A stretch of DNA of 64,000 bases, from contig JAVKID010000001.1 of the NCBI GenBank assembly GCA_031459655.1, positions 893-64,892 on the forward strand, read 5' to 3'. The position numbers and the translations under genes were made by a program. Source of the stretch: Candidatus Fervidifonticultor octavus. Lineage in GTDB: Bacteria > Sysuimicrobiota > Sysuimicrobiia > Sysuimicrobiales > Humicultoraceae. The notes beneath the pieces are model-generated. The model was not told the origin of the DNA. It saw only the letters and a program-made list of their open reading frames with translations, and did not search any database. Below, piece by piece: positions 9,532-43,981 of the stretch; within the stretch, counting starts at the first letter, position 1; every line of letters starts with the position of its first letter.

Positions 9532-9542
9532 AGATTCCCGGC

Positions 9543-9571
9543 TTCGACTTCGCCACCTCCTGCCCTATACT
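9543..9571 (+). promoter_or_regulatory. Candidate promoter TTCGAC -17- TATACT upstream of the FdhF/YdeP gene
   Basis: Hexamers are spaced 17 nt apart, about 25 nt before ATG 9597, with a GGGGGG Shine-Dalgarno in between. Confidence 0.3.
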
Positions 9572-9596
9572 CGTAGGTAGCCGGCGGGGGGCTGTC

Positions 9597-11864
9597 ATGG
9601 ACCGTCACTTCAGGATTGCGGGCTGGGATCCGTCGCTGTGGGCCAGCCGCAGGCCGCTGGGCATCGGCGAGGGCCGGCCCAACAACTATGCGGAAATCTG
9701 GAGGGCCATCTGGGAGAACCGGGACCAGATCCCCTTCGCCTGGCGGATCCTCACCCGGGGGGTCTGTGACGGGTGCGCGCTGGGGACCGCCGGGATGCGG
9801 GACTGGACTCTGGACGGCAACCACCTGTGCAACATCCGGCTGCGCCTGCTGCGCCTGAACACGATGCCCGCGCTGGACGCCCGGCTGCTGGCGGATGTCT
9901 CGGCCCAGGGCGGCAGGCGCAACGAGGACCTGCGCGCGCTGGGCCGGCTGCCCTACCCCCTGGTGCGCCGCCGGGGAGAGGCCGGCTTCCGCCGCATCAC
10001 GTGGGACGACGCCCTCGACCTCATCGCGGGCCGCATCCGCGACGCCCTGGCGCGGCCTGAGGGGTCCCGGCGCATCGGCTTCTACCTGACCAGCCGCGGC
10101 ATGGCCAACGAAGCCTACTACGCGGCGCAGAAGGCCGTCCGCGCCATCGGGACCAACTCCATCGACAACGCCGCGCGCGTCTGCCACGCGCCGAGCACGT
10201 ACGCGTTGAAACAGGCCCTCGGCGTGGCGGCCAGCACGTGTTCCTATGTGGACTGGATCGGCTCCGACCTGGTGGTTTTCATCGGGTCCAACGTTGCCGG
10301 CAACCAGCCGGTCGCCGTGAAGTACCTGTACTACGCCAAGAAGGCCGGCACGAAGGTCGTTACCATCAACAGCTACCGCGAGCCGGGGATGGAGCGCTTC
10401 TGGGTCCCCTCGATCCCCGAGAGCGCGCTGTTCGGCACGAAGATCACCGACCGGTTCTTCCTCGTCAATGTCGGCGGGGACATCGCGTTCCTCAACGGAA
10501 CGCTGAAGGCAATGATCGAACGAGGGTGGGTGGACGACGCGTTCATCGAGGCGCACACGGCTGGCTTCGAGGAGCTGCGGGCCGCGCTGGCGGCCCAACC
10601 GTGGGACGCGCTGGAGCGCCACAGCGGCGTCGGCCGCGCCGAGATGCTGGAGTTCGCGAGGATGGTCGGCGAGGCCCGGACCGCCGTGTTCGTCTGGTCG
10701 ATGGGCATCACGCAGCACGCGTTCGGGGAGAACAACGTCCGCGCCATCGTGAACCTGGCGCTGGCGCGCGGCTTCATAGGGCGCGCTCGGTGCGGTCTGA
10801 TGCCGATCCGCGGACACTCCGGCGTGCAGGGCGGGGCCGAGATGGGCGCCTACGCCACCGCCTTTCCCGGCGGGCTTTCGATCACCCCCGAGCACGCGCG
10901 GCGGTTCGCCGACCTGTGGGGCTTTCCGGTCCCGGACCGCCCCGGCCTGACGGCGCCCGAGATGATGGACGCGGCCGCCGACGGCCGGCTGGACGTGCTC
11001 TTCTCGGCGGGCGGGAACTTCCTGGAGGTGCTGCCCGATGCGGCCTTCGTCCGGGAGGCGCTGTGTCGCATCCCACTGCGGGTCCACATGGATATCGTCC
11101 TGACCCGGCAGATGCTGCTGGAACCCGCAGACCTGGTCGTGCTGCTCCCGGCGGCCACGCGGTACGAGACGCCCGGCGGCGTGACCCAGACCAGCACCGA
11201 GCGGCGGATCATCTATAGCCCCGAGATCCCGGGACGGCGCATCGGCGAAGCCCGGCCCGAGTGGGAGGTCTTCATGGATCTGGCGCGGCGGGTCCGGCCG
11301 CAGTGGGCCGACCGCCTGCGGTTCGACGGCACCGCGGCGATTCGCCAGGAGATCGCCCGCGCGGTGCCGTTCTACGACGGCATCCAGTACCTCAAGCGGG
11401 CCGGGGATCAGGTCCAGTACGGTGGGCCGCACCTGTGCGCGGGGTGGATGTTCCCGACCCCGGACGGCCGGGCGCACTTCACCGCCGTGCCGCTCCCGGA
11501 CGCCGGGGTGCCCGAAGGGATGTTTCTGGTGGCCACGCGCCGGGGCAAGCAGTTCAACAGCATGGTGCACGAGACGCGTGACGCGCTGACCGGCGCGGCG
11601 CGCGAGGCGGTGCTCATCAGCCGCCAGGACGCCGAACGTCTGGGGCTGCGCGATGGCGACCCGGTGGTGCTGCGCAGCGCCACCGGCGAGTTCCGCGGCC
11701 GGGCCTGCGTGGCGCCGGTCAAGCCCGGGACGCTGGAGGTGCACTGGCCGGAGGGCAATGTGCTCATCGACCGCCGGCGGCGGTCACCGGAGGCGGGGAT
11801 TCCGGACTACAACGCCGTGGTGCGGCTGGAGGTCCCGGCCGCCGCCGGTCCCGCGGGAGGCTGA
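9597..11864 (+). CDS. FdhF/YdeP-family molybdopterin oxidoreductase (formate-dehydrogenase-like)
   Basis: N-terminal Cys cluster (CDGCALGTAG...C), molybdopterin oxidoreductase domains, and a C-terminal molybdopterin dinucleotide-binding region. Followed directly by fdhD. Confidence 0.8.
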   Translation: MDRHFRIAGWDPSLWASRRPLGIGEGRPNNYAEIWRAIWENRDQIPFAWRILTRGVCDGCALGTAGMRDWTLDGNHLCNIRLRLLRLNTMPALDARLLADVSAQGGRRNEDLRALGRLPYPLVRRRGEAGFRRITWDDALDLIAGRIRDALARPEGSRRIGFYLTSRGMANEAYYAAQKAVRAIGTNSIDNAARVCHAPSTYALKQALGVAASTCSYVDWIGSDLVVFIGSNVAGNQPVAVKYLYYAKKAGTKVVTINSYREPGMERFWVPSIPESALFGTKITDRFFLVNVGGDIAFLNGTLKAMIERGWVDDAFIEAHTAGFEELRAALAAQPWDALERHSGVGRAEMLEFARMVGEARTAVFVWSMGITQHAFGENNVRAIVNLALARGFIGRARCGLMPIRGHSGVQGGAEMGAYATAFPGGLSITPEHARRFADLWGFPVPDRPGLTAPEMMDAAADGRLDVLFSAGGNFLEVLPDAAFVREALCRIPLRVHMDIVLTRQMLLEPADLVVLLPAATRYETPGGVTQTSTERRIIYSPEIPGRRIGEARPEWEVFMDLARRVRPQWADRLRFDGTAAIRQEIARAVPFYDGIQYLKRAGDQVQYGGPHLCAGWMFPTPDGRAHFTAVPLPDAGVPEGMFLVATRRGKQFNSMVHETRDALTGAAREAVLISRQDAERLGLRDGDPVVLRSATGEFRGRACVAPVKPGTLEVHWPEGNVLIDRRRRSPEAGIPDYNAVVRLEVPAAAGPAGG

Positions 11865-11865
11865 G

Positions 11866-12765
11866 ATGCGCCCCCGTCCGGGCAGCAAGACGCGCGCGCA
11901 GGTCCTGGTGGTAAGTGACGGGCGTCTCGCGCCCCACCCCGACCAGGTGGCCACCGAGGAACCCATGGAGATCCGCGTCGCGGCGGGGCCGGGCGGGGAC
12001 GCCGGCCGACGGACGGTCGCGGTCACGATGCGGACCCCGGGCGCCGACTTCGAACTGGCCGCCGGATTCCTCTTCAGCGAAGGCCTCCTCCGGTCGCGAG
12101 ACGAGATCCGGCGGATCAGCTACTGTACCGATCCCGCCGTCGGCCCGGACCAGCGGTACAACGTGGTGACGGTCGAACTGGCCGGTACAGCCCTTCCGGA
12201 CCTGGCGCCGCTGGAACGACACTTCTTCACCTCCAGCGCCTGCGGGGTGTGCGGCAAGGCCGGCATCGAGGCGCTCCGCGTGCGCGGCTGCAGGCCGGTG
12301 GCCTCCGGTCCGGCGGTCGAGGCCCGCGTGCTGGCAGGGTTGCCCGAGACACTCCGGGCGGCCCAGAGGGGCTTCCGGGCGACCGGCGGCCTGCACGCCG
12401 CCGCCCTCTTCGATGCCAAGGGCACCCTAGTGATGGCGAAGGAAGACGTGGGCCGGCACAACGCGATGGACAAACTCGTGGGCTGGGCCCTCCTGGAGGG
12501 CCGGGTGCCGCTGGACGATCATCTCGTCCTGGTCAGCGGGCGGGCCAGTTTCGAACTGGTGCAGAAGAGCCTCGCCGCGGGCATTCCCGTCTTCTGCGCG
12601 GTCTCGGCACCCACCAGCCTGGCGGTGGGCCTGGCACGGGACTTCGGGATGACGCTCGTGGGCTTCCTCCGGGGAAGCCGGTTCAACGTCTACGCAGGGG
12701 TCGAGCGGGTCGTGGCCGGCGTTCCGCGCACGGTGGCGCCCGCGCGCCGGGCGGGCTCTGGCTGA
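11866..12765 (+). CDS. fdhD: Formate dehydrogenase accessory sulfurtransferase FdhD
   Basis: Conserved SACGVCG cysteine motif and GGLHAAALF. Start at MRPRPGSK (ATG 11866), 1 nt after the YdeP stop. Confidence 0.8.
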   Translation: MRPRPGSKTRAQVLVVSDGRLAPHPDQVATEEPMEIRVAAGPGGDAGRRTVAVTMRTPGADFELAAGFLFSEGLLRSRDEIRRISYCTDPAVGPDQRYNVVTVELAGTALPDLAPLERHFFTSSACGVCGKAGIEALRVRGCRPVASGPAVEARVLAGLPETLRAAQRGFRATGGLHAAALFDAKGTLVMAKEDVGRHNAMDKLVGWALLEGRVPLDDHLVLVSGRASFELVQKSLAAGIPVFCAVSAPTSLAVGLARDFGMTLVGFLRGSRFNVYAGVERVVAGVPRTVAPARRAGSG

Positions 12766-28067: not shown

Positions 28068-28586
28068 TTACGGCGCGAGGGGGGCCACCGCGAACACGAC
28101 GTGGAACGGCTTGCAGTAGATGACCACCGCGCGGTAGTCGGCGAGGTTGGTTTCCGCCGGCAGCGTGTAGTTCTGGCTGCCGACGTTACCCTTGAGCCTG
28201 GCGACCTCGATGTACCCCGTCATCACGTCGGCGCGCGTCCTGGGCGCGGCGTGCCTCGTGAGGATCACGTACAGGTCGGGACCATTCGTCACCCTGAACG
28301 GGTCTAGGCGGAGCACGACCTCCCCGCCGACCCGGTAGACCGTCGCGGTCCCTTCGCCCTTGTGGAAGTCGTCGGCGCCGGCGAAGGTGCCGCGGGCGAG
28401 GACCGTGCCCTGGGCGGTGCCTGGGGGCATCGGATCCGCGGATGCGGCCGGCACACCGCCCGGGAACGACTCGTCCACCACGCGGTTGATGAACAGCGGC
28501 GAGCCCAGATACCAGGCGATCGGCACGCCGACGATGACGAGGACGGCGACCATCCCCCAGGCCCACTTCGGGATCCGTCGTCGCAT
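28068..28586 (-). CDS. DM13 domain-containing protein (N-terminal TM anchor)
   Basis: Start at MRRRIPKWAWGMVAVLVIVGV (ATG 28586), then a DM13-like beta-rich domain (ARGTFAGADDFHKGEGTATVYRVGGEVVLRL...). Confidence 0.6.
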   Translation of the reverse strand: MRRRIPKWAWGMVAVLVIVGVPIAWYLGSPLFINRVVDESFPGGVPAASADPMPPGTAQGTVLARGTFAGADDFHKGEGTATVYRVGGEVVLRLDPFRVTNGPDLYVILTRHAAPRTRADVMTGYIEVARLKGNVGSQNYTLPAETNLADYRAVVIYCKPFHVVFAVAPLAP

Positions 28587-28737
28587 GGGCTGACTTCCTC
28601 CTCCCTGTGGCAGGCTCGTGGTCCGCCACAAGCGATTGCCACCCACCTGGACGTGCTGCCCGTGCTCTTTCACGATCGGTACCTGAGAGCGCCTAAACTA
28701 CGATGAAGGTTCGGTCAAGATTACGTAACATCTTCGC

Positions 28738-30161: not shown

Positions 30162-31583
30162 CTAGCGGTTCAGCAGGATCGGCAGGGTCAGCGCGATCAC
30201 CACCACCAGCGCCCACAGCGCTGGCGCCGAGGTGAGCAGGTGTTCCCTGCGGCGGACCACGCGGGCTTCCTCGACCCGCGACCGCGGGATCCACCACGGG
30301 TTGAAGCGGGCCTCCAGCAGGTGGAAGACGACGCCCATCGCGGCACCGTAGGCGAAGTGCGCCACCAGGCTGCCGAAAAGTGCTGCGGCGGCCTCGGCCG
30401 TCCACTGGGGCGCCGCGCCCAGCAGGACCGGCATGAGCGTGAGCGGGCCGAGCACCCACCACAGGAAGCCGTAGGTGACGCCCCAGCCCAGCGCCGAGCC
30501 GACGTCGAGGCTCTGCCGGCGGAAGAACAGCCCGTAGCTCGCGCCGATGGCGCAGGCCACGACAACCTGTACGGTGACGCCGGCCAGCGCCGACCGCGAC
30601 CCGAGCAGGCCGGCCGCCGCCGGGACGAACCCGGTGCGCACGGCCACCACGGTGAAGAGCGCTCCGCCGGCCAGCCCGGCCAGCACGCCACGGCCGATGG
30701 CGCGCAGACCCTCGGTGCCGATGCCTTCCTGGTCCCCGCCGCCGCGGATGTCGGAGAACAGCAGGCGCGCCACGCCGTCCAGCCACTGGACGCCCAGGCC
30801 GACCGCGGCCCCGAAGAGCAGGTAGCCTGGCAGCACGGAAAACCCTGCGCGGGCGTCCTCGACCGACCATGCCAGCCCGGCCCCCCGCGCCAGCGGCACG
30901 ATGGTCAGGGGCCAGAGGGCCCACCAGAAGAAGCCAAAGACCATGCCGCGAACCAAGGCCGGTCCGGTGCCGTCCGGGGGCCGCGGGTAGAGCAGGGCGA
31001 AGCTGACCCCGCCCAACAGGCCGATCACCGGGGTCGACGGGCCGTCCGCCCGCGGTCCGAGCAGCGCGAGAAGCGGCCAGGCACCGGCGAGGCCCGCGAC
31101 GGCGCCCCGGACCAGCACGCCGACCAGCGTCCAGCCCCGTAGCGCGCCTCCAGGCAGGGGGTCGCGCCGGATCGCCGCCAGGGCCAGGCCCGTGGCGGCG
31201 CCGTAGCCGAGATGCGCCAGCAGGCCCGCAAAGGCCTCCTGCGCCGAGTGCACGTCCCAGGCGATGACTCCGAGCTGCAACAGCGGCAGCAGGGTCAGCG
31301 GGCCGAGGAACCACCAGAGCGCGCCGTAGGTGAGGCCCCAGAACAGCGTCTCGCCGGCTCCCGGGCGCTGGTGCCAGACGAGCACGCCGAAGCCAGCCCC
31401 GAGGATCGCCGCGACAACCAGGTGGACGACCACGCCGGCGCCGGCAGCGCCCGGGCGCACCAGCGACGCGGTGGAGGGGAGCGCGGCGATCTGCGCCAGG
31501 GCCGCTGCGGAGATCAGGCCGCCGACCAGGCCGGCCAGGGTGCCGGGAAGAACGCCACGGGCGAACCAGTCGCGGGTCCTCAC
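30162..31583 (-). CDS. Polytopic membrane protein built from three tandem ~110-aa modules (signature YGxxWWxxGPLTLxPxLLG ... HxxYGAxxG), paralogous to the NDH-2 N-terminal module
   Basis: GTG start at 31583 overlapping the NDH-2 TGA (GTGA). Three internally homologous repeats are visible by eye. The 170 R/P-rich codons upstream in the listed ORF are rejected because they overlap the NDH-2 coding region. Confidence 0.65.
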   Translation of the reverse strand: MRTRDWFARGVLPGTLAGLVGGLISAAALAQIAALPSTASLVRPGAAGAGVVVHLVVAAILGAGFGVLVWHQRPGAGETLFWGLTYGALWWFLGPLTLLPLLQLGVIAWDVHSAQEAFAGLLAHLGYGAATGLALAAIRRDPLPGGALRGWTLVGVLVRGAVAGLAGAWPLLALLGPRADGPSTPVIGLLGGVSFALLYPRPPDGTGPALVRGMVFGFFWWALWPLTIVPLARGAGLAWSVEDARAGFSVLPGYLLFGAAVGLGVQWLDGVARLLFSDIRGGGDQEGIGTEGLRAIGRGVLAGLAGGALFTVVAVRTGFVPAAAGLLGSRSALAGVTVQVVVACAIGASYGLFFRRQSLDVGSALGWGVTYGFLWWVLGPLTLMPVLLGAAPQWTAEAAAALFGSLVAHFAYGAAMGVVFHLLEARFNPWWIPRSRVEEARVVRRREHLLTSAPALWALVVVIALTLPILLNR

Positions 31584-33397
31584 GCGCCGGCTCCCGGGGG
31601 CGACGGCATCGTCGCCGGGGTGCGCGAACTCGCCCCCGTCACCTGCGGCAGCGTCGGCGTGGGGACGCCGCCGGTCAGCACGATGTCCCGCGGGAAGAAG
31701 AGGTCGAGCGTCCAGTCGAGCACGACGCGGACCTTCTTCTCGAGGCCGGGCAGTTTGCTCAGGTAGACGGTCCGCCACAGGAACCAGGCGAGCAGGCCGG
31801 AGAACTTCCATCCGCGGATCTCGGCCACGGCCGTGCGATGGCCCAGGGCGACCAGGGTGCCGATCGTGCGGAAGCGAAATGGTCTGGGCGGCTGGCCGCG
31901 CAGTGCGGCCGCGATGTTCTCGGCCGCGGCCTGCCCCTCGCGCAGCGCGTGCTGCGCCGTGGGCGGGCAGGACGTCCCCGGGCGGTTGGGGTCCGGGATC
32001 TGGGCGCAGTCGCCGACGGCCCACACGGCTTCCAGGCCCCTGACCCGCAGGGCCTGGTCGGCGACTGCGGCGCCGGCGCGGCTGCGCTCGCATGGCAGAG
32101 TCGCCAGCAGCGGATGAGGCTGGTTCCCGGCGGTCCAGACCAACGTCCGTGTCGGGATCGCACGGCCGTCGCCCAGCAGGACCGCGTCGGATGTGGCCCC
32201 GCCCACGCGGGTGTTCAGCAGGAACTCGATCCCGCGCGCCTGGAGCTTCCGCAGGGCGTAGTCCGCCAGCGCCCGGCTGATCTCAGGCAGGATGCGCCCG
32301 CCGGAGTGGATCAGGAGGAAGCGCGGTTCGTGGGGCTGGATGCCGGGATAGTACCGGAGCACGCTCCCCACCAGGTCGAACAGTTCGGCGATCATCTCGG
32401 TGCCGGCGAACCCGCCCCCGGCGACCACGAAGGTCAACTGGCGCACGCGCTCCTGGGGATCGGTCTCCGCGTCCGCGCGCTCCAACAGCGCGATGACGTG
32501 GTTGCGCAGCCGCGTGGCGTCGTCCAGGGTCTTCAGCGTGAAGGCGTGGGTTTCGAGGCCGGGGAGGCCGTAGAAGTTGGGAACCGCACCCAGGGCGAGG
32601 ATCAGGTGGTCGTAGGGGAGCACCTCGGTCGGGGCGGTCGGGTCGGTCCGGATGCTGACGGTTCTGGCGGCGCCGTCGACGGCCTCCACCTCGGCCCGCC
32701 GGAAGCGCGTGTGCTGCAGCGCCGCGCGCACCGGCGCGCTGATGTGCTGGGCCTCCAGGCCGCTGCTTGCCACCTCGGCCAGCATGGGGGTGAAGAGTAG
32801 GTAGTTGCTCTGACTGACCAGGGTGATCTCCAGCCGCGGATCGCGCGCGAAGAGGTGCTCCAGGCGCTGCGCGGCACTGACGCCTCCGAATCCGCCTCCC
32901 AGGATGACCACCCGCCAGGACGGCGCCTCCGGGAGCGGCAGACGGCCGAGGGCCGCGGTCTGGGGGTGCCGGCGCAAATAGAGCGCGACGAGTCCATAGA
33001 AGCTACCGCCGAGGAGCGCGCCGTAGAGCAGGTGCCCGACCAGGTTGGGCAACGCGGCCGCCGCGGCCGCAGCCGTCCAGGTTGGCGCGCCGCCCCGGAG
33101 GAGCGGGATCAGGGTCAGGGGGCCGGCGATCCACCAGAGGAGCGCGTAGAGGACACCGCCGGTGATCGTCGACGCGTAGCCGAGCGGCTGGTAGCGGAAG
33201 ATGACCCCGAACCCGGCGCCGATCAGCACCGCGGAGCCCAGGTGGACGGCGAGCCCGGCCCCCAACGACGCGAGCCCGATCAGGCCGGCAACACTAGCCA
33301 GCAGGCCCTGGGCCTGCATGGCCCAGGCCGAGGCCAGGCCCCCGACCAGTCCCCCGATCCCGCCGGCGACGAGGTCACGGCGTAGCGCGTGCGACAC
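31580..33397 (-). CDS. Type II NADH dehydrogenase (NDH-2)-like FAD/NAD(P) oxidoreductase with an extra N-terminal 4-TM membrane module
   Basis: Residues ~1-140 form a membrane module (GAGFGVIFRYQPLGYASTITGGVLYALLWWIAGPLTLIPLLRGG...). Then the canonical NDH-2 region: GGGFGG FAD site, GGGFAG second dinucleotide site, GDCA. Confidence 0.75.
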   Translation of the reverse strand: MSHALRRDLVAGGIGGLVGGLASAWAMQAQGLLASVAGLIGLASLGAGLAVHLGSAVLIGAGFGVIFRYQPLGYASTITGGVLYALLWWIAGPLTLIPLLRGGAPTWTAAAAAAALPNLVGHLLYGALLGGSFYGLVALYLRRHPQTAALGRLPLPEAPSWRVVILGGGFGGVSAAQRLEHLFARDPRLEITLVSQSNYLLFTPMLAEVASSGLEAQHISAPVRAALQHTRFRRAEVEAVDGAARTVSIRTDPTAPTEVLPYDHLILALGAVPNFYGLPGLETHAFTLKTLDDATRLRNHVIALLERADAETDPQERVRQLTFVVAGGGFAGTEMIAELFDLVGSVLRYYPGIQPHEPRFLLIHSGGRILPEISRALADYALRKLQARGIEFLLNTRVGGATSDAVLLGDGRAIPTRTLVWTAGNQPHPLLATLPCERSRAGAAVADQALRVRGLEAVWAVGDCAQIPDPNRPGTSCPPTAQHALREGQAAAENIAAALRGQPPRPFRFRTIGTLVALGHRTAVAEIRGWKFSGLLAWFLWRTVYLSKLPGLEKKVRVVLDWTLDLFFPRDIVLTGGVPTPTLPQVTGASSRTPATMPSPPGAGA

Positions 33398-33436
33398 CGC
33401 GTCCCCCGATCGCCGCCCAGGTCGTCTGGACGGAAC

Positions 33437-34635: not shown

Positions 34636-34680
34636 TCCGTATAATTTGTGCACATTCCGGCGCGATACAGGGGGTGGGTC

Positions 34681-35928
34681 GTGCGACAGGATGATCTGCG
34701 CGACGAAGCCATCTACGAGCGGACCCGGCAGGACGAGTTCGTCTGGCGGCGCGCGCGGGAACTGGGGATCTCGCGGCGCCGCTTCCTCGCCCTCCTGGCT
34801 GCCGGCGGAGCATCGGCCGCTCTGGGCGGCGTGCGGCCGGCGGGCCCCGCGTCCCTCCATGCCGCCCCGGCCGCGCCGCTGGTCGTCAAACCGGTGCCGC
34901 CGGACCTGTTCTACAACTTCGGCAGCAACCACGAGATGCGCTGGGAGCACATGACCGGCCGCGGCTACCTGGTGCCCAACGAGCTGTTCTTCATCCGCAA
35001 CCACACCCGCACCCCGCGCATCGACCCGTCTACCTGGCGCCTGAGGGTCGAGGGCTCCGGCGTCCGGCGTCCCCTGGAGTTGACCTACGACGACATCCTC
35101 TCGCTGCCGGACGTCTCGGTGCGCCGCTACGTGGAGTGCGCCGGCAACGGCCGCAGTTTCTTCGAACTGCAGTATGGCAGGCGCGCCCAGGGGACCCAGT
35201 GGCGGCTCGGCGCGGTGGGCGTGGCCGAGTGGACCGGGGTGCCCTTGCGCGAGATCCTGGACCGGGCGGGGCTGAAGACGACGGCCGTGGACGTGCTGCC
35301 GGAGGGCCTCGACGACCTGAAGGTGCGCAGGCCGATGTCCGTGGCCAAGGCGCTGGAGCCCGACACATTGCTGGTCTACGCGATGAACGGCCATCCCCTG
35401 CCCCCCGACCACGGGTTCCCCGCGCGGATCCTCGTGCCGGGGTGGATCGGTATCGCCAACATCAAGTGGGTAGGCCGGCTCGAGGTTTCGGAGACCCCGC
35501 TCTACACCCCGTGGAACACCGAGAGCTATGTCATGATCGGGCCCGACTACAAGAAGCCCGACGGCCCGGCACTGGGGCCGGTCCTGTCGGCGCAGAACGT
35601 CAAGAGCGCCTTCGAACTCGCCTGGCCGGCCGAGGTGCGGGCCGGCCGACGCGTCGTCCGCGGTCGGTCCTGGGGCCCCTACGCCATCACGAAGGTCGAG
35701 TACAGTCTCGACCGCGGCATTACGTGGCAGACCGCCCGCATCCGCGATGCGGCCGCGCCGCGGGCCTGGGTGCGCTGGGAGTTCGAGTGGGACGCGCGGC
35801 CGGGCGACTACAGCCTGCGCGTGCGGGCCACCGACGCCCAGGGGAACACCCAGCCGGCCGGAGTCCCGTGGAACGAGCAGGGGTACCTCTACAATGCGGT
35901 GGTCGGCCACCCGGTGACCGTAACGTGA
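34681..35928 (+). CDS. Sulfite oxidase-family molybdopterin oxidoreductase (SorA/YedY-like), Tat-exported
   Basis: Twin-arginine motif SRRRFLALLAAGGASAAL. Moco-binding Cys region VECAGNGRS, and a dimerisation-like C-terminal domain. The start was moved to GTG 34681 because the -10 element sits only 7 nt before the first listed start codon. Confidence 0.7.
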   Translation: MRQDDLRDEAIYERTRQDEFVWRRARELGISRRRFLALLAAGGASAALGGVRPAGPASLHAAPAAPLVVKPVPPDLFYNFGSNHEMRWEHMTGRGYLVPNELFFIRNHTRTPRIDPSTWRLRVEGSGVRRPLELTYDDILSLPDVSVRRYVECAGNGRSFFELQYGRRAQGTQWRLGAVGVAEWTGVPLREILDRAGLKTTAVDVLPEGLDDLKVRRPMSVAKALEPDTLLVYAMNGHPLPPDHGFPARILVPGWIGIANIKWVGRLEVSETPLYTPWNTESYVMIGPDYKKPDGPALGPVLSAQNVKSAFELAWPAEVRAGRRVVRGRSWGPYAITKVEYSLDRGITWQTARIRDAAAPRAWVRWEFEWDARPGDYSLRVRATDAQGNTQPAGVPWNEQGYLYNAVVGHPVTVT

Positions 35929-35942
35929 GGCCGGGCAGCCGG

Positions 35943-36374
35943 ATGTGGCGGGCGCCGCGTCTCGGCGCGGGGCCCGCGCGCATGGCGGTCGGTGCCGTGA
36001 CCGCGGGGATCCTGCTGGCAGTGTCGGTCGCGCTGCCCGCGGGGCAGAGGGCCCGGGGTCGGTCGGTGCTGGCCGCGCCGGCACCGTCACCGCGGCCGGT
36101 GCTGATGAAGGCCCGAGAGTTCGTCTTCGATCCCAAGGAGGTGACGGTGCGCGCCGGCGAGGTGACCTTCGAGGTGAAGAACGAGGGCTCGATCGAACAC
36201 AACTTCCTCATCGAGGATGTCAACCGCCGCACGCTGGCCCAGATCCCCATCATCGAGCCGGGCAAGACCGAGGACGTGAAGGTCACGATCCGGCCGGGGA
36301 CCTACCCCATTGTTTGCTCGCTGCCCGGCCACAAGGAAGCCGGCATGACCGGGACGCTGCGGGTCCAGCCGTGA
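35943..36374 (+). CDS. Cupredoxin (plastocyanin/azurin-like blue copper protein) with a signal-anchor
   Basis: Type-1 Cu ligands H (IEHNF), C-x2-H (CSLPGH) and M (GMTG). N-terminal hydrophobic segment. Confidence 0.7.
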   Translation: MWRAPRLGAGPARMAVGAVTAGILLAVSVALPAGQRARGRSVLAAPAPSPRPVLMKAREFVFDPKEVTVRAGEVTFEVKNEGSIEHNFLIEDVNRRTLAQIPIIEPGKTEDVKVTIRPGTYPIVCSLPGHKEAGMTGTLRVQP

Positions 36375-39738: not shown

Positions 39739-40902
39739 ATGATCACTGACTCCACGGCCGACGTCACGGAGGCGGCCCTCCGCGCCCGGAAGGGCGACAA
39801 ATGGAGTAGGTACGGCGCAGACGTTCTCCCCGCATGGGTCGCCGATATGGATTTTCCGGTGCCCGATTCCGTGCGCGAGGTCCTGGTCTGGTCTGCCGAA
39901 CACTCCGCCCTGGGCTACGGGCGGCCGGAGGACGAGAGGGAGATGTTCGAGGCCGGGTCGCGGTGGCTTGCGACGCGCCACGGCTGGGAGCCTGACCCCG
40001 AGTCGTTTGCCTCGCTGGGGAATCTGGTGCAGGGTCTGTACCTGGCCGTCTGGGCCTTCACCGAACCCGGCGAGGGAGTCGTCGTCCAGACGCCGATCTA
40101 CCCGCCCTTCCTCACCGGCGTCGCCGCGCTGGGCCGGCGGGTGGTGGAGAACCGGCTCGTGGACGCCTGCGGGTCGGCCTCCCTCGACCTCGACGGCCTG
40201 CGCCGTCTCGCGGCTGATCCCCACACCAGGCTGTTGCTGCTGTGCAACCCGCACAACCCCACGGGCCGTGTGCTGCGCCGCGACGAACTCGAGGCCATCG
40301 CGGCCATCGCCCTGGACTGCGATCTGGTGGTCGTCTCTGATGAGATCTGGATGGACGTCGTCTATCCGGGTCGCCGTCACATTCCCTTTGCCACGATCAG
40401 TCCCGAGGCGGCCGCGCGCACCGTCACCCTGACCTCGGCCACCAAGGCCTTCAACATCGCGGGATTGCGCTGCGCCGTGGCCATCTTCGGCAGCCCCGCG
40501 CTCCGGGAACGGTTCTCGGTGCTGCCGCCCAAGATGTGGGGGACACCCGGCGTGCTGGGCATCCGGGCGACGGCGGCGGCGTGGACGGACGGCGGGCCCT
40601 GGCTCGATGTCGTCCTCCGGCAGCTGGACGCCAACCGGCGGGCTCTGGCGCAGTTCGTCCGGGAGCGCCTGCCCGGCGTCCGCCACCGGAGCCCTGAGGG
40701 GACGTATCTCGCCTGGCTGGACTTCTCGGCGCTGCGCCTGGACCGCCCGGCGGCCGCCTTCCTCCTCGACCGGGCCCGCGTGGCCCTCAGCGACGGCAGC
40801 GACTTCGGAGGGGGCGGTCACTGTGCCCGGCTCAACTTCGCGACCACGCCGGCAATCCTGTCGCAGATCTGTGAGCGGATCGCCCGGGCCCTGGACGGCT
40901 AG
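39739..40902 (+). CDS. PLP-dependent aminotransferase class I/II, MalY/PatB-type C-S lyase
   Basis: DKWSRY, the ADMDFP motif, NPHNPTGRV, and a lysine region SATKAFNIAGLR. Start at either 39703 or 39739. Confidence 0.65.
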   Translation: MITDSTADVTEAALRARKGDKWSRYGADVLPAWVADMDFPVPDSVREVLVWSAEHSALGYGRPEDEREMFEAGSRWLATRHGWEPDPESFASLGNLVQGLYLAVWAFTEPGEGVVVQTPIYPPFLTGVAALGRRVVENRLVDACGSASLDLDGLRRLAADPHTRLLLLCNPHNPTGRVLRRDELEAIAAIALDCDLVVVSDEIWMDVVYPGRRHIPFATISPEAAARTVTLTSATKAFNIAGLRCAVAIFGSPALRERFSVLPPKMWGTPGVLGIRATAAAWTDGGPWLDVVLRQLDANRRALAQFVRERLPGVRHRSPEGTYLAWLDFSALRLDRPAAAFLLDRARVALSDGSDFGGGGHCARLNFATTPAILSQICERIARALDG

Positions 40903-42035
40903 CGGGCCGTCGGGACGACCGATCGCCGGGTCGCGGCGATCGCTTGGCCCACCATCCACGCCACGACAGCCAGGCCCGCCACGAACAGGACGAGGAAGAG
41001 GACCAGTGGGCCCCACTGCGGGTCTACGCGCTCGGCCGTCACGTCCAGGAACCGGCGGAGTTCCGCGTTCTGCACGATCTGACGGCTTAAGGCGTTGGCG
41101 GCCAGCACCCCGATCTGCGAGGCGGCTACCAGCAGGGCGAGGGCTGGCGTGATCCCCCCGCGCCCGACCCAAAGCAGCAGCCAGGGGAGCCCGGGCGAGA
41201 GCGCGGTCGCGGCCGTCAGGACCACCAGCGGCCGGGCGAGCATCATCTGGCGGATCGCTGCCGGCCAGGTCCAAAACACGTACCACGATCCCGCCACCCC
41301 AACCCACGCCAGGCCCAGCGTGTACAGCCGCCACCCGAACCCGGCTGCCCAGCGTCGGTACGCGCTGGTCTCGCGCACCGCGAAGAGGCCGGCGTCCACC
41401 ACGGCATAGGCCGCGGTGGTCGTCAGCGCCAGCCCCAGGACCATCAGCCAGCGGGGCAGCCACGTGGGATCGCCGGTGTTGAGGGCCACCCCGAGCGGTG
41501 CGCCGGCGACGCTCGTCCGCTGCCAGAGCGCCGGCCAGGCCTCCACGCGGGTCATCAGGCTGAGGGCGTTGGAAAACACAAAGCTGATGGCCACGAAGAG
41601 GAGCGCGGCCACCCACCCGGCGGCCTGCCGCCACGGCCCCAGCCGCCCGGTCCGAAGTCCGACCGCATAGAGGTACACGCCGTAGTAGGCCACCATGAGG
41701 GCCGCGATGACCCCCAGCCAGGGCCAGGCCATCAGGATCGTCGCGGGATAGAACACTCTGGCGTACGCCACCTGCGTGAACAGGAGGGGCACGATCCCGA
41801 AGTTGATCCCCAGTGCCAGGATGATCGGCATCTGGACCATCACCCGGCCCGACCAGGTGCGGGCGTGCTCGCCCCCTCGCCAGCGGCCCAGCATGGCCAG
41901 CAGCGTCCCGGCCAGCCACAGGGTCATCGGGATCAGGTGGAGCGTAAAGCCCAGGACCTTGAAGAAGGCCAGTACCCAGTAGGGCGCAGGGTACCCCAGC
42001 GGCGCGGGCGGTCCGATCAACTGGTTCGGGTCCAT
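40899..42035 (-). CDS. Polytopic membrane protein (9 predicted TM) downstream of the CydA-like gene; putative subunit II of a bd-type oxidase by position and topology only
   Basis: Hydropathy profile, CydB-like size (378 aa), and a 33-nt gap after the CydA-like stop. No CydB sequence signature is recognised. Confidence 0.5.
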   Translation of the reverse strand: MDPNQLIGPPAPLGYPAPYWVLAFFKVLGFTLHLIPMTLWLAGTLLAMLGRWRGGEHARTWSGRVMVQMPIILALGINFGIVPLLFTQVAYARVFYPATILMAWPWLGVIAALMVAYYGVYLYAVGLRTGRLGPWRQAAGWVAALLFVAISFVFSNALSLMTRVEAWPALWQRTSVAGAPLGVALNTGDPTWLPRWLMVLGLALTTTAAYAVVDAGLFAVRETSAYRRWAAGFGWRLYTLGLAWVGVAGSWYVFWTWPAAIRQMMLARPLVVLTAATALSPGLPWLLLWVGRGGITPALALLVAASQIGVLAANALSRQIVQNAELRRFLDVTAERVDPQWGPLVLFLVLFVAGLAVVAWMVGQAIAATRRSVVPTAR

Positions 42036-42068
42036 CTCAGGTTCCTGCTTCGCCCGGCTTGACTACCC

Positions 42069-43463
42069 TTACGGACCGGTCGCGGGCTCCATGCCGCCTG
42101 GCCGCGGCCAGCGGATGGACGACAGGTACTTGGTCAGCACCTCGGCCTCTTCCGCCGTCCCCGCCCAGGGCGGCATGAAGAAGTTGGTCTCACTGAGGTG
42201 GTCGAGGAGATGGCGGATCATCTCGGGCGTCCACCCCCGCGTCAGATGGCTGACGGCGGAGTAGCCGACGGTCGCGGCGTGGCAGTTGTTGCACTGGTAC
42301 TGGAAGATCACCCGGCCGAGGGAGACCTGATCGGCCTCGGGCAGGTCGAGCAGCCGGCGCTCGTCGATCGCGCCACCGTCCATCACCTGGGGATACTGCG
42401 ACGCCACCAGCACTCTGGTCCAAGTGCCGGTCTCCAGGTAGCCCTGCCGCCGGGCTGCGGGCACCTGCTCCACCAATAGCTGGTTCCCCATGACGACGTT
42501 GTAGATGATGTACGGCTTGCGGACCGCCTCGCGGATGAACTCGCCGGTCGCAAACGCCGCCAGCCCCAGCGCGAAGAACAGGATGGCGAAGCCGGGCGAC
42601 AGCCAGCCCGGGTGCCGGTACGGGCCCAGGTAGAGCATGATGAAGACCGCGATGGTGATGGCGAAGATGAGCACCATCATGATGTTGAGCGAGGCGGCCG
42701 CACTCAACGCGGCCCTGGCCGATTCCGGCAGGAAGACGTACCACCCCGCCCCTCCGGCGACGACGAGGATCGCGCCCAGCAGCGCCGGCCGCGCCGAGCG
42801 GGCGGCGATGAGGTCGCGCAGCGCGGGATCCCTGACCCTGAAGGCCGCGTGCAGGTAGACATAGAGCGACGCCAGCAGGAAGGCACCGCCGGTGCGGGCC
42901 AGGACCTGGGGGACGAACTGCGGGTTGAAGAACGCCACCCAGAAGGTTCGCCGCTCAGGCCAGGCGCCGGGGTGCAGCATGAAGGCGGTGATGCCGGTGA
43001 TGAGCACCAGGCTCATCCAGGCCGAGCCCGCGTAGATCCACCCCACGGTCTGGTGCGTCCTGGCGTCCAGGCGTCCCCAGAAGTAGTAGAAGATGAACGC
43101 CGAGACGATCTCCAGGACGAAGAAGACGTACTCCATAGCCCAGCCGAAGACGAAGATCTGGATGAGCATCGAGGTGGCCAGCGGCGAAGCCAGCCCGATG
43201 GTCCACCAGATGCCCACACCGGTGATGGCGCCGTAGACGACCGTCACCAGGATGAAGAACCAGGCGTGGTCCCTGAGGTAGGCCAGGTAGGCGCGGTGGC
43301 CGGTGCGGTAGGCGTGCGCCGTCTCCAGGGCCAGGAACAGCCCGCCGCCGACGGCATAGTGCGCCACCAGCACGTGCAGGACCGCGACGATGGCGATGAG
43401 CATCGGCGCGGTCAGGAATGGAACGTACCACCAGGGATAATGCACGGGTGCATCCAAAAGCAT
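42069..43463 (-). CDS. Cytochrome bd oxidase subunit I (CydA)-like protein lacking a Q-loop, with a fused C-terminal mono-haem cytochrome c domain (CNNCH)
   Basis: N-terminus MLLDAPVHYPWW...LHVLVAHYAVGGGLFLALETAHAYRTG aligns to the E. coli CydA helix 1 (His19 ... ETVYVLSG). Nine TM helices. The C-terminus ...VIFQYQCNNCHAATVGYS is a CxxCH haem-c site with a Met-rich tail. Confidence 0.7.
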   Translation of the reverse strand: MLLDAPVHYPWWYVPFLTAPMLIAIVAVLHVLVAHYAVGGGLFLALETAHAYRTGHRAYLAYLRDHAWFFILVTVVYGAITGVGIWWTIGLASPLATSMLIQIFVFGWAMEYVFFVLEIVSAFIFYYFWGRLDARTHQTVGWIYAGSAWMSLVLITGITAFMLHPGAWPERRTFWVAFFNPQFVPQVLARTGGAFLLASLYVYLHAAFRVRDPALRDLIAARSARPALLGAILVVAGGAGWYVFLPESARAALSAAASLNIMMVLIFAITIAVFIMLYLGPYRHPGWLSPGFAILFFALGLAAFATGEFIREAVRKPYIIYNVVMGNQLLVEQVPAARRQGYLETGTWTRVLVASQYPQVMDGGAIDERRLLDLPEADQVSLGRVIFQYQCNNCHAATVGYSAVSHLTRGWTPEMIRHLLDHLSETNFFMPPWAGTAEEAEVLTKYLSSIRWPRPGGMEPATGP

Positions 43464-43584
43464 ACCACAGGTTGCGCCCGACTTCATCGGGTCCGGACTG
43501 GAGAATCGGGTTGGCTGAGAGTCGCGGCCGGGATCGCAGGGTCACCCAGGAGGGCCGGGCCGCCGGGGTGCGAAGTACGAGGAC

Positions 43585-43981
43585 ATGAAGAGGCCCCGCG
43601 TTGCCAGCGGCACGCCCTGGGAACCCATCGTCGGCTACTCCCGCGCCATTCGCGTCGGAATCACCGTTCACGTGTCGGGGACGACCGCCACTGACGAGGA
43701 AGGCAACATCGTCGGCCGGGGCGATCCCTACCTGCAGACCGTCCAGGCGCTCAGGAACATCGGGAAGGCGCTGGACGCCGTGGCGGCTCGCCTGGAGGAC
43801 GTGGTGCGCACGCCGCATCTATGTTACCAACATTGACGCCTGGGAGAAGGTCGGAAAGGCCCACGGGGAGGTCTTCGGCGCAATCCGGCCGGCCACCAGC
43901 ATGGTGGAGGTCAGTCGGCTCATCGATCCCGACATGATGGTGGAGATCGAGGCCGACGCCGTCGTTGGCGATCCGGCGTAG
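43585..43981 (+). pseudogene. RidA/YjgF-family protein, frameshifted (+1 nt) at about 43808
   Basis: Frame 1 reads [76 protein letters not shown]; the second frame reads [52 protein letters not shown]. Deleting one C in CGCACGCCGCATC joins them. Confidence 0.55.

Follow-up and report, generated by a model that had tools for sequence, protein, structure and literature searches.

A two-gene bd-family locus with a fused haem c, probably encoding a cytochrome c-fed terminal oxidoreductase of the OR-C1 family

We analysed a 64-kb window of DNA from Candidatus Fervidifonticultor octavus (contig JAVKID010000001.1, positions 893 to 64,892) and focused on two adjacent minus-strand genes, here called A and B, which probably encode a bd-type terminal oxidoreductase with two subunits, a member of the OR-C1 family that would receive its electrons from a c-type cytochrome and not from quinol. 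As judged by alignment and by residue invariance, A keeps the catalytic half of CydA, namely the active-site haem ligand H38, the second high-spin haem ligand E320 and the proton channel E119/E126/H145/S159. Going by published tables and definitions, A and B correspond to an OR-C1a/OR-C1b pair, a type already catalogued in 2021. From these sequence features, the pair likely acts as a cytochrome c-dependent O2 reductase. Both open reading frames (ORFs) proposed by the initial annotation, which had been made from the letters alone, were recovered with the same boundaries on the minus strand, and each has a coding-type GC content at third codon positions of 0.91 in a window of 70% GC. Residue numbers of A refer to the longest ORF of 472 aa unless the 458-aa numbering is stated.

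We first describe the homology of A to CydA. Searched against the Pfam CydA family PF01654, residues 30-242 of A gave a match with E=2.6e-16 (59.7 bits vs a cut-off of 26.2), and a C-terminal fragment, residues 265-336, matched profile positions 314-378 with E=3.8e-5. The AlphaFold model of A (pLDDT 70) shows eight long helices and, behind them, a C-terminal domain that is also helical; CydA chains make up all of its best structural matches in Foldseek (lowest E 2.4e-6). Alignment of A to E. coli CydA by hhalign paired LHVLV with MYHFLF and ETAHAYRTG with ETVYVLSG, thereby reproducing the motif matches from which the initial annotation had recognised a CydA-like start; the family-level profile match bears out the same homology, while the earlier count of about nine transmembrane (TM) helices in A gives way to the eight of the model. 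In the same alignment H38 corresponds to H19, E126 to E107, H145 to H126 and S159 to S140. E119, the counterpart of E99, lies six residues ahead of E126, which is the Geobacillus-type spacing, compared with seven in E. coli.

For the C-terminal half of A, hhalign against the single E. coli sequence gave no significant result and was set aside. Instead, we used Pfam profile coordinates calibrated on the matched fragments of A and E. coli CydA, both of which are ungapped. Since E316, E320, R323 and P325 of A share the ungapped profile positions 358, 362, 365 and 367 with E. coli W441, E445, R448 and P450, A retains a counterpart of the haem ligand E445 and, behind helix 8, the R-x-P-aromatic motif. 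H38, E119, E126, H145, S159 and the E316/E320/R323/P325 set are invariant in 29 close sequences and also in relatives that are only 35% identical.

The quinol module of CydA, by the profile alignment and the model, is lost. Where PF01654 has positions 224-313, 90 positions that include the Q-loop, A has just 21 residues (244-264), whereas E. coli CydA has ~137 residues across most of the same span. The absence of the Q-loop had been anticipated from a core of ~380 aa and holds; the core itself is smaller than was assumed, as A is laid out as a membrane core of ~320 aa, a linker of ~50 aa and a cytochrome c domain of ~90 aa. The ligands of haem b558 are gone as well. The position of H186 falls on A197 or R198 of A, with an uncertainty of one residue either way, and the nearest histidine lies 15-16 residues further on; R198, at or beside this position, is invariant. 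The region of M393 has no conserved methionine, so that neither haem b558 ligand position is conserved.

In place of helix 9 of CydA, A carries a mono-haem cytochrome c domain, detected by PF13442 on residues 388-455 (31.8 bits vs a cut-off of 27). Its single CxxCH, C399-N-N-C402-H403, is invariant, as is M438-P-P, and it is the sole CxxCH among the coding-type ORFs of the window. When the profile is aligned to cytochromes c-552 and c6, M438 coincides with the M-P-A-W motif of both, whose methionine is the sixth haem ligand in these proteins, so that M438 is a candidate sixth ligand in A; the C-terminal domain is thus as it was first described, with one CNNCH and a candidate methionine ligand. 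Because A has eight helices and an N-terminus outside as in CydA, and because the Lys and Arg counts in the short loops agree with an N-out/C-out topology (8 inside vs 3 outside), the haem c domain is predicted to face the periplasm, as the initial annotation had also expected. Nine helices would instead place it in the cytoplasm, where it would be unable to mature. We infer from the missing Q-loop, and further from the loss of both haem b558 ligand positions, that electrons would enter through the fused cytochrome c and not from quinol, in line with the original proposal.

Three additional histidines of A, H43, H74 and H213, are invariant in the 29 aligned close homologues and absent from some distant relatives, H43 being already replaced in the Bacteroidota members of 57-59% identity. 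Their places in helices 1, 2 and 5 are on the side of the cytoplasmic ends, in the neighbourhood of H145 and E55, and they may form a proton-entry cluster or an extra-cofactor site. H213 was considered as a haem b558 ligand and rejected, as it is found 15-16 residues past the position of H186 and is missing in distant relatives; H43 and H74 are likewise clade-specific.

Gene B encodes a cysteine-free protein of 378 aa that matches no Pfam (E<=1) or NCBIfam family, the CydB profile PF02322 included, and in Armatimonadota its homologues, which reach 93% identity, carry the annotation 'hypothetical protein'. The AlphaFold model of B (pLDDT 82, pTM 0.83) has nine long helices, and a Foldseek search with it returned, at E<=0.02, bd-oxidase subunits only, with CydA chains at 1.9e-5 to 1e-3 and CydB at 3.5e-3 to 1.7e-2. 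A narrow profile of B built from 28 close homologues gave a probability of 1.6% against A by hhalign, E=0.3 against E. coli CydA, E=0.09 against CydB, and noise only in a PDB profile search. A 71-sequence alignment of B likewise retrieved nothing from PDB sequences or Pfam. When this 71-sequence alignment was compared with that of A, however, hhalign yielded a probability of 93.9% and E=1.6e-7 over 229 columns, matching B 17-268 with A 17-269. The two are in register, with H33 of B on H38 of A (=H19) and no Glu in B at the columns of E119 or E126. H33, located in helix 1, is invariant across all 71 sequences, down to 25% identity. The paralogy is therefore visible only in the deep profile-profile comparison and the fold search, both of which indicate that B is a diverged CydA paralogue and not a CydB. 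B can thus be described as a pseudo-symmetric paralogue in the place normally taken by CydB. The initial annotation was right about nine predicted helices and the lack of a CydB signature; what it missed is that the partner still belongs to the bd family, as a diverged CydA paralogue of the 'b type'. The B family comprises 1,337 clusters at E<=1e-3 in the representative library. The cluster names of the remote B homologues are all metagenomic, and they gave no link to the cultured organisms of published lists.

The spread of the A clade was charted with loci L001-L080, taken from a scan of genome contigs, and with proteins P0001-P0120. In 78 of the 80 related loci, B is the next gene after A and has the same orientation, and in the remaining two the contig ends just after A. 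The two genes overlap by 1 or 4 nt in 27/80 loci, and the spacing is mostly between -4 and +30 nt. The pair was also present in all five distant contexts sampled. In addition, two independent in-frame fusions were found, one in L073 (7896-10580, an 894-aa ORF) and the other in protein P0268 (865 aa), with unrelated Pro/Ser-rich linkers. Both join the C-terminus of A to the N-terminus of B, and they fit the topology because these two ends are both predicted to be outside. The adjacency in close loci and distant contexts, together with the fusions, argues that A and B form one enzyme. No conserved third gene was found beside the pair in the 80 loci.

One distant lineage shows a different arrangement. 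In L082 (5001-9255) and L083 (2199-6453), a B-like gene, a Rieske protein, a cytochrome b and a CydA with cytochrome c are encoded in one operon, which diverges from a gene for a hybrid-cluster (Prismane) protein. In this single lineage the Rieske/cytochrome b operon is consistent with electrons passing from quinol to a bc-type complex, then to haem c and on to the oxidase.

These data allowed us to weigh whether the pair might still be a quinol oxidase, using a non-canonical quinol site at the A-B interface or within B, with the haem c as an accessory or an alternative entry. NCBI and JGI name A 'cytochrome ubiquinol oxidase subunit I', but such names are automatic transfers from the PF01654 match. 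E. coli CydB does hold a structural quinone, yet this quinone is beyond electron-transfer distance of the haem chain. The window encodes a type II NADH dehydrogenase (NDH-2), which implies a quinone pool, and it shows no cytochrome c donor; on the other side stand the missing Q-loop and the missing ligands of haem b558, which is the acceptor of quinol electrons. Moreover, in L082/L083 a Rieske/cytochrome b quinol oxidase between the two genes would be redundant if the pair itself oxidised quinol. We consider quinol oxidation improbable on balance.

We then compared the cytochrome c-fed pair with the known systems of the superfamily. The bd superfamily has been split into qOR, OR-C and OR-N, of which OR-C is defined by an absent quinol site and a haem c site in subunit I, while OR-C1b is an adjacent duplicated CydA and E99 and E107 are as a rule missing from the 'b' subunits (Murali, Gennis & Hemp 2021, bioRxiv 10.1101/2021.01.16.426971). 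Like OR-C1a, A is homologous to CydA, shares the first four helices, lacks a quinol site, and has eight helices and a predicted periplasmic C-terminal CxxCH extension; like OR-C1b, B is an adjacent CydA-derived gene without the proton-channel glutamates. Supplementary Table 6 of that preprint lists for the OR-C1a reference H24, E105, E112, S145, H131, Y119, Y121, V77, W80, L153 and F183. In the 458-aa numbering, A has the same residue at the same number in 8 of these 11 (H24, E105, E112, H131, S145, Y121, V77 and W80), all of them invariant. At the other three it has Ala for Phe at 183, Phe for Tyr at 119 and Thr for Leu at 153; position 183 is thus occupied by a non-haem-ligating residue, as in the reference. 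Table 7 of the same work contains many single-haem OR-C1a proteins along with zero-haem OR-C1b proteins named 'hypothetical protein' from the same genomes, often with consecutive gene ids, for example in Thermoanaerobaculum, Hydrogenobacter and Thermocrinis, and Armatimonadota are scored as OR-C-bearing (Murali et al. 2021). Some differences were also noted. The equivalent of H126 is invariant in the A clade, whereas the paper calls H126 poorly conserved in the family; A has E320/E316 at the profile positions of E445/W441, for which the paper lists no such counterpart; and B has nine helices by AlphaFold against eight in the paper, a count that may come from another predictor.

With CydAB, as known from E. 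coli (qOR1) and Geobacillus thermodenitrificans (qOR3), the pair shares the fold of both subunits and, in A, the equivalents of H19, E99, E107, H126, S140 and E445 with the R-x-P-aromatic motif; the six-residue spacing of the two glutamates is that of the Geobacillus enzyme. In contrast to CydAB, A has no Q-loop, H186 or M393, hence no canonical haem b558, and a cytochrome c domain replaces helix 9. Furthermore, a CydA paralogue bearing a conserved His stands in for CydB as second subunit, the predicted donor is cytochrome c and not quinol, and no small CydX or CydS gene was seen. A second subunit derived from CydA, with H19 kept and the proton-channel glutamates and quinol site lost, is likewise found in CydAA' of Caldivirga maquilingensis (qOR4a/qOR4b), whose catalytic subunit, however, has no haem c and retains a quinol site together with the ligands of haem b558; CydAA' is archaeal and stems from an independent duplication (Murali et al. 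2021). The OR-N5a/b and OR-N1 systems, encoded with petA/petB (Rieske/cytochrome b), resemble the pair in lacking a quinol site and in their paired 'a'/'b' CydA paralogues, and the L082/L083 relative is also encoded with a Rieske protein and a cytochrome b. OR-N proteins differ in having 10-14 helices, a retained H186-type His and no fused haem c, and the pair in the window has no pet genes. Operons of the pet type were described for OR-N only, and not for haem c-fused enzymes (Murali et al. 2021). The locus therefore adds a clean new example and not a new kind of system. The modest additions made here are, in A, the motif corresponding to E445 and the invariant Arg that falls on the H186 position or beside it; in B, the His that is invariant throughout the family; and, for the pair, the two fusions of A with B, the Rieske/cytochrome b operon variant and the unusually high conservation across phyla.

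As for the mechanism, a periplasmic donor, which could be a soluble cytochrome c, a bc-type complex or possibly a cupredoxin, would reduce the fused haem c. The haem c would take over the electron-entry role of haem b558 and pass electrons to the two-haem active site, where O2 would be reduced to water with protons from the cytoplasm. Membrane potential would arise through charge separation, without pumping. Many of the hosts fall in groups generally seen as anaerobes or microaerophiles, so in the cell the pair may serve to scavenge O2 with high affinity.

The same architecture could in principle serve other chemistry, in which NO, H2O2 or nitrite would be reduced or detoxified at the same haem site with electrons from cytochrome c. 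By record titles, many hosts fall into Bipolaricaulota, Anaerolineae, Thermoguttaceae and Zixibacteria, all usually regarded as anaerobic. An anaerobic host is nevertheless no argument against O2, because the bd oxidases of anaerobes are known as O2 scavengers. The operon of L082/L083 diverges from a hybrid-cluster protein gene, and the hybrid-cluster protein family is linked to NO and hydroxylamine stress; this neighbour, however, occurs in a single lineage only. No biochemistry for the family was found in the literature searched, but conservation falls on the residues that make up the O2-reducing site and the proton channel in characterised bd oxidases. Murali et al. (2021) regard the family as an oxygen reductase and reach the same conclusion on the donor. 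Taken together, another acceptor appears unlikely, and a cytochrome c-fed O2 reductase is preferred.

Several points weigh against this preferred reading. The AlphaFold model of A is of moderate quality and drops below a pLDDT of 50 around the CxxCH and M-P-P motifs, the PF13442 score barely exceeds its cut-off, and the H186 position is assigned with an uncertainty of one residue to either side. The 64-kb window contains no cytochrome c maturation gene, soluble cytochrome c, other CxxCH protein or bc complex, and the Rieske/cytochrome b operon occurs in 1/5 distant contexts and in 0/80 close loci. The conserved active-site residues are the sole pointer to O2 as the acceptor. Finally, no biochemical study of any OR-C enzyme was found in the literature searched, and a structural paper of 2026 cites OR-C as a phylogenetic class only; this agrees with the remark in the initial annotation that cytochrome c-fused members had been catalogued phylogenetically and not characterised, as they were by Murali et al. 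(2021).

The invariant His of B raises the question of what the second subunit carries. In a bolder version of the proposal, both subunits would carry redox cofactors, with H33 of B binding an extra haem and the haem c fully replacing b558, and the module would have spread laterally as a cytochrome c-driven scavenger of O2 (or NO). We regard this combination as possible yet doubtful. The extra haem would be one more than any characterised bd oxidase has; for CydA' such a haem has been raised and neither verified nor refuted (Murali et al. 2021). Alternatively, the same H19-equivalent His could bind an extra haem as part of a wire, the pair being an electron-transfer or structural module without terminal catalysis that serves as an anchor or conduit for another enzyme. 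Desulfovibrio OR-C1a proteins with up to 8 haems c (Murali et al. 2021) resemble in this the membrane redox complexes of sulfate reducers, and the clade-specific H43, H74 and H213 point toward the cytoplasmic side. These three residues, however, are not conserved in distant relatives, a conserved third gene is absent beside the pair in the 80 loci, and A keeps every proton-channel residue and the two active-site haem ligands without variation, which would be needless for a simple wire. A mere conduit is therefore highly improbable, and terminal catalysis by the pair remains the favoured account.

Members of the gene A clade share 57-83% identity across about ten phyla, and nearly all of them come from metagenome-assembled genomes (MAGs). 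The lineages include Armatimonadota, Chloroflexota, Planctomycetota, Bipolaricaulota and Zixibacteria, as well as Bacteroidota, Ignavibacteria, Acidobacteriota, Binatia and UBP7. Close relatives are present in at least 573 species genomes, mostly uncultured and belonging to groups generally seen as anaerobic. As this conservation is far above that predicted for vertical descent, it suggests lateral spread of the two-gene module.

Biochemistry and structures so far cover the quinol-oxidising branch of the cytochrome bd superfamily only, and the OR-C branch would add a third type of cytochrome c oxidase with no relationship to the haem-copper enzymes. At stake are the route by which electrons reach a bd-type active site that has no haem b558, and whether there is a cofactor in the second subunit. 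With two genes, one haem c, no accessory genes and strong conservation, the A-B clade makes a good target for expression and electron cryomicroscopy. The labels 'ubiquinol oxidase' and 'hypothetical' mean that metabolic reconstructions of MAGs with the pair probably misread it.

At the level of the locus, all 28 aligned homologues of A begin at residue 15, where a GTG lies at 43445, so the product of A is probably 458 aa long. The AGGAA motif in the spacer, resembling a ribosome-binding site, stands 7 nt upstream of the ATG of B. The pair is a self-contained two-gene unit, since an aminotransferase gene converges on the 3' end of B and a RidA-like gene diverges upstream of A. A promoter and terminator scan gave no signal exceeding the shuffled background. 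The features are collected in Table 1.

Table 1 Positions of the A-B pair, its parts and other redox genes in the 64-kb window.
Feature	Position	Strand	Basis or remark
Gene A, OR-C1a-type CydA homologue with C-terminal mono-haem cytochrome c domain (putative)	42069..43487	-	ORF, Pfam, AlphaFold, Foldseek
Gene B, OR-C1b-type partner, 378 aa (putative)	40899..42035	-	ORF, AlphaFold, Foldseek, hhalign
Membrane core of A, residues 28-333, TM1-TM8	42486..43406	-	hhalign, Pfam profile coordinates, invariance
Short TM6-TM7 connection of A, residues 244-264, AGGAGWYVFLPESARAALSAA	42696..42758	-	AlphaFold helices 221-251 and 265-290; Pfam gap
Cytochrome c domain of A, residues 388-455	42123..42326	-	PF13442 match, invariant columns
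A-B spacer, 33 nt, AGGAA motif	42036..42068	-	sequence
Type II NADH dehydrogenase (NDH-2)	31580-33436	-	
Molybdopterin oxidoreductase and FdhD	9534-12765	+	
DM13 'electron transfer' domain protein	28068-28697	-	
Sulfite-oxidase-family molybdoenzyme	34645-35928	+	PF00174 and PF03404
Cupredoxin, CSLPGHKEAGM type-1 copper motif	35955-36374	+	after molybdoenzyme

Among the other redox genes of the window, the sulfite-oxidase-family molybdoenzyme is paired with a blue-copper protein and not with a cytochrome c. This molybdoenzyme-cupredoxin arrangement, ~6 kb away from A and B, could conceivably donate electrons on the periplasmic side. Upstream of A, the RidA/YjgF-family gene (43585-43981, plus strand) is broken over two reading frames: PF01042 positions 6-69 are encoded by the ORF 43585-43836, and positions 70-121 by the frame that ends at 43981. 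Such a pattern points to a frameshift near 43800-43836, arising from either an assembly error or a pseudogene.

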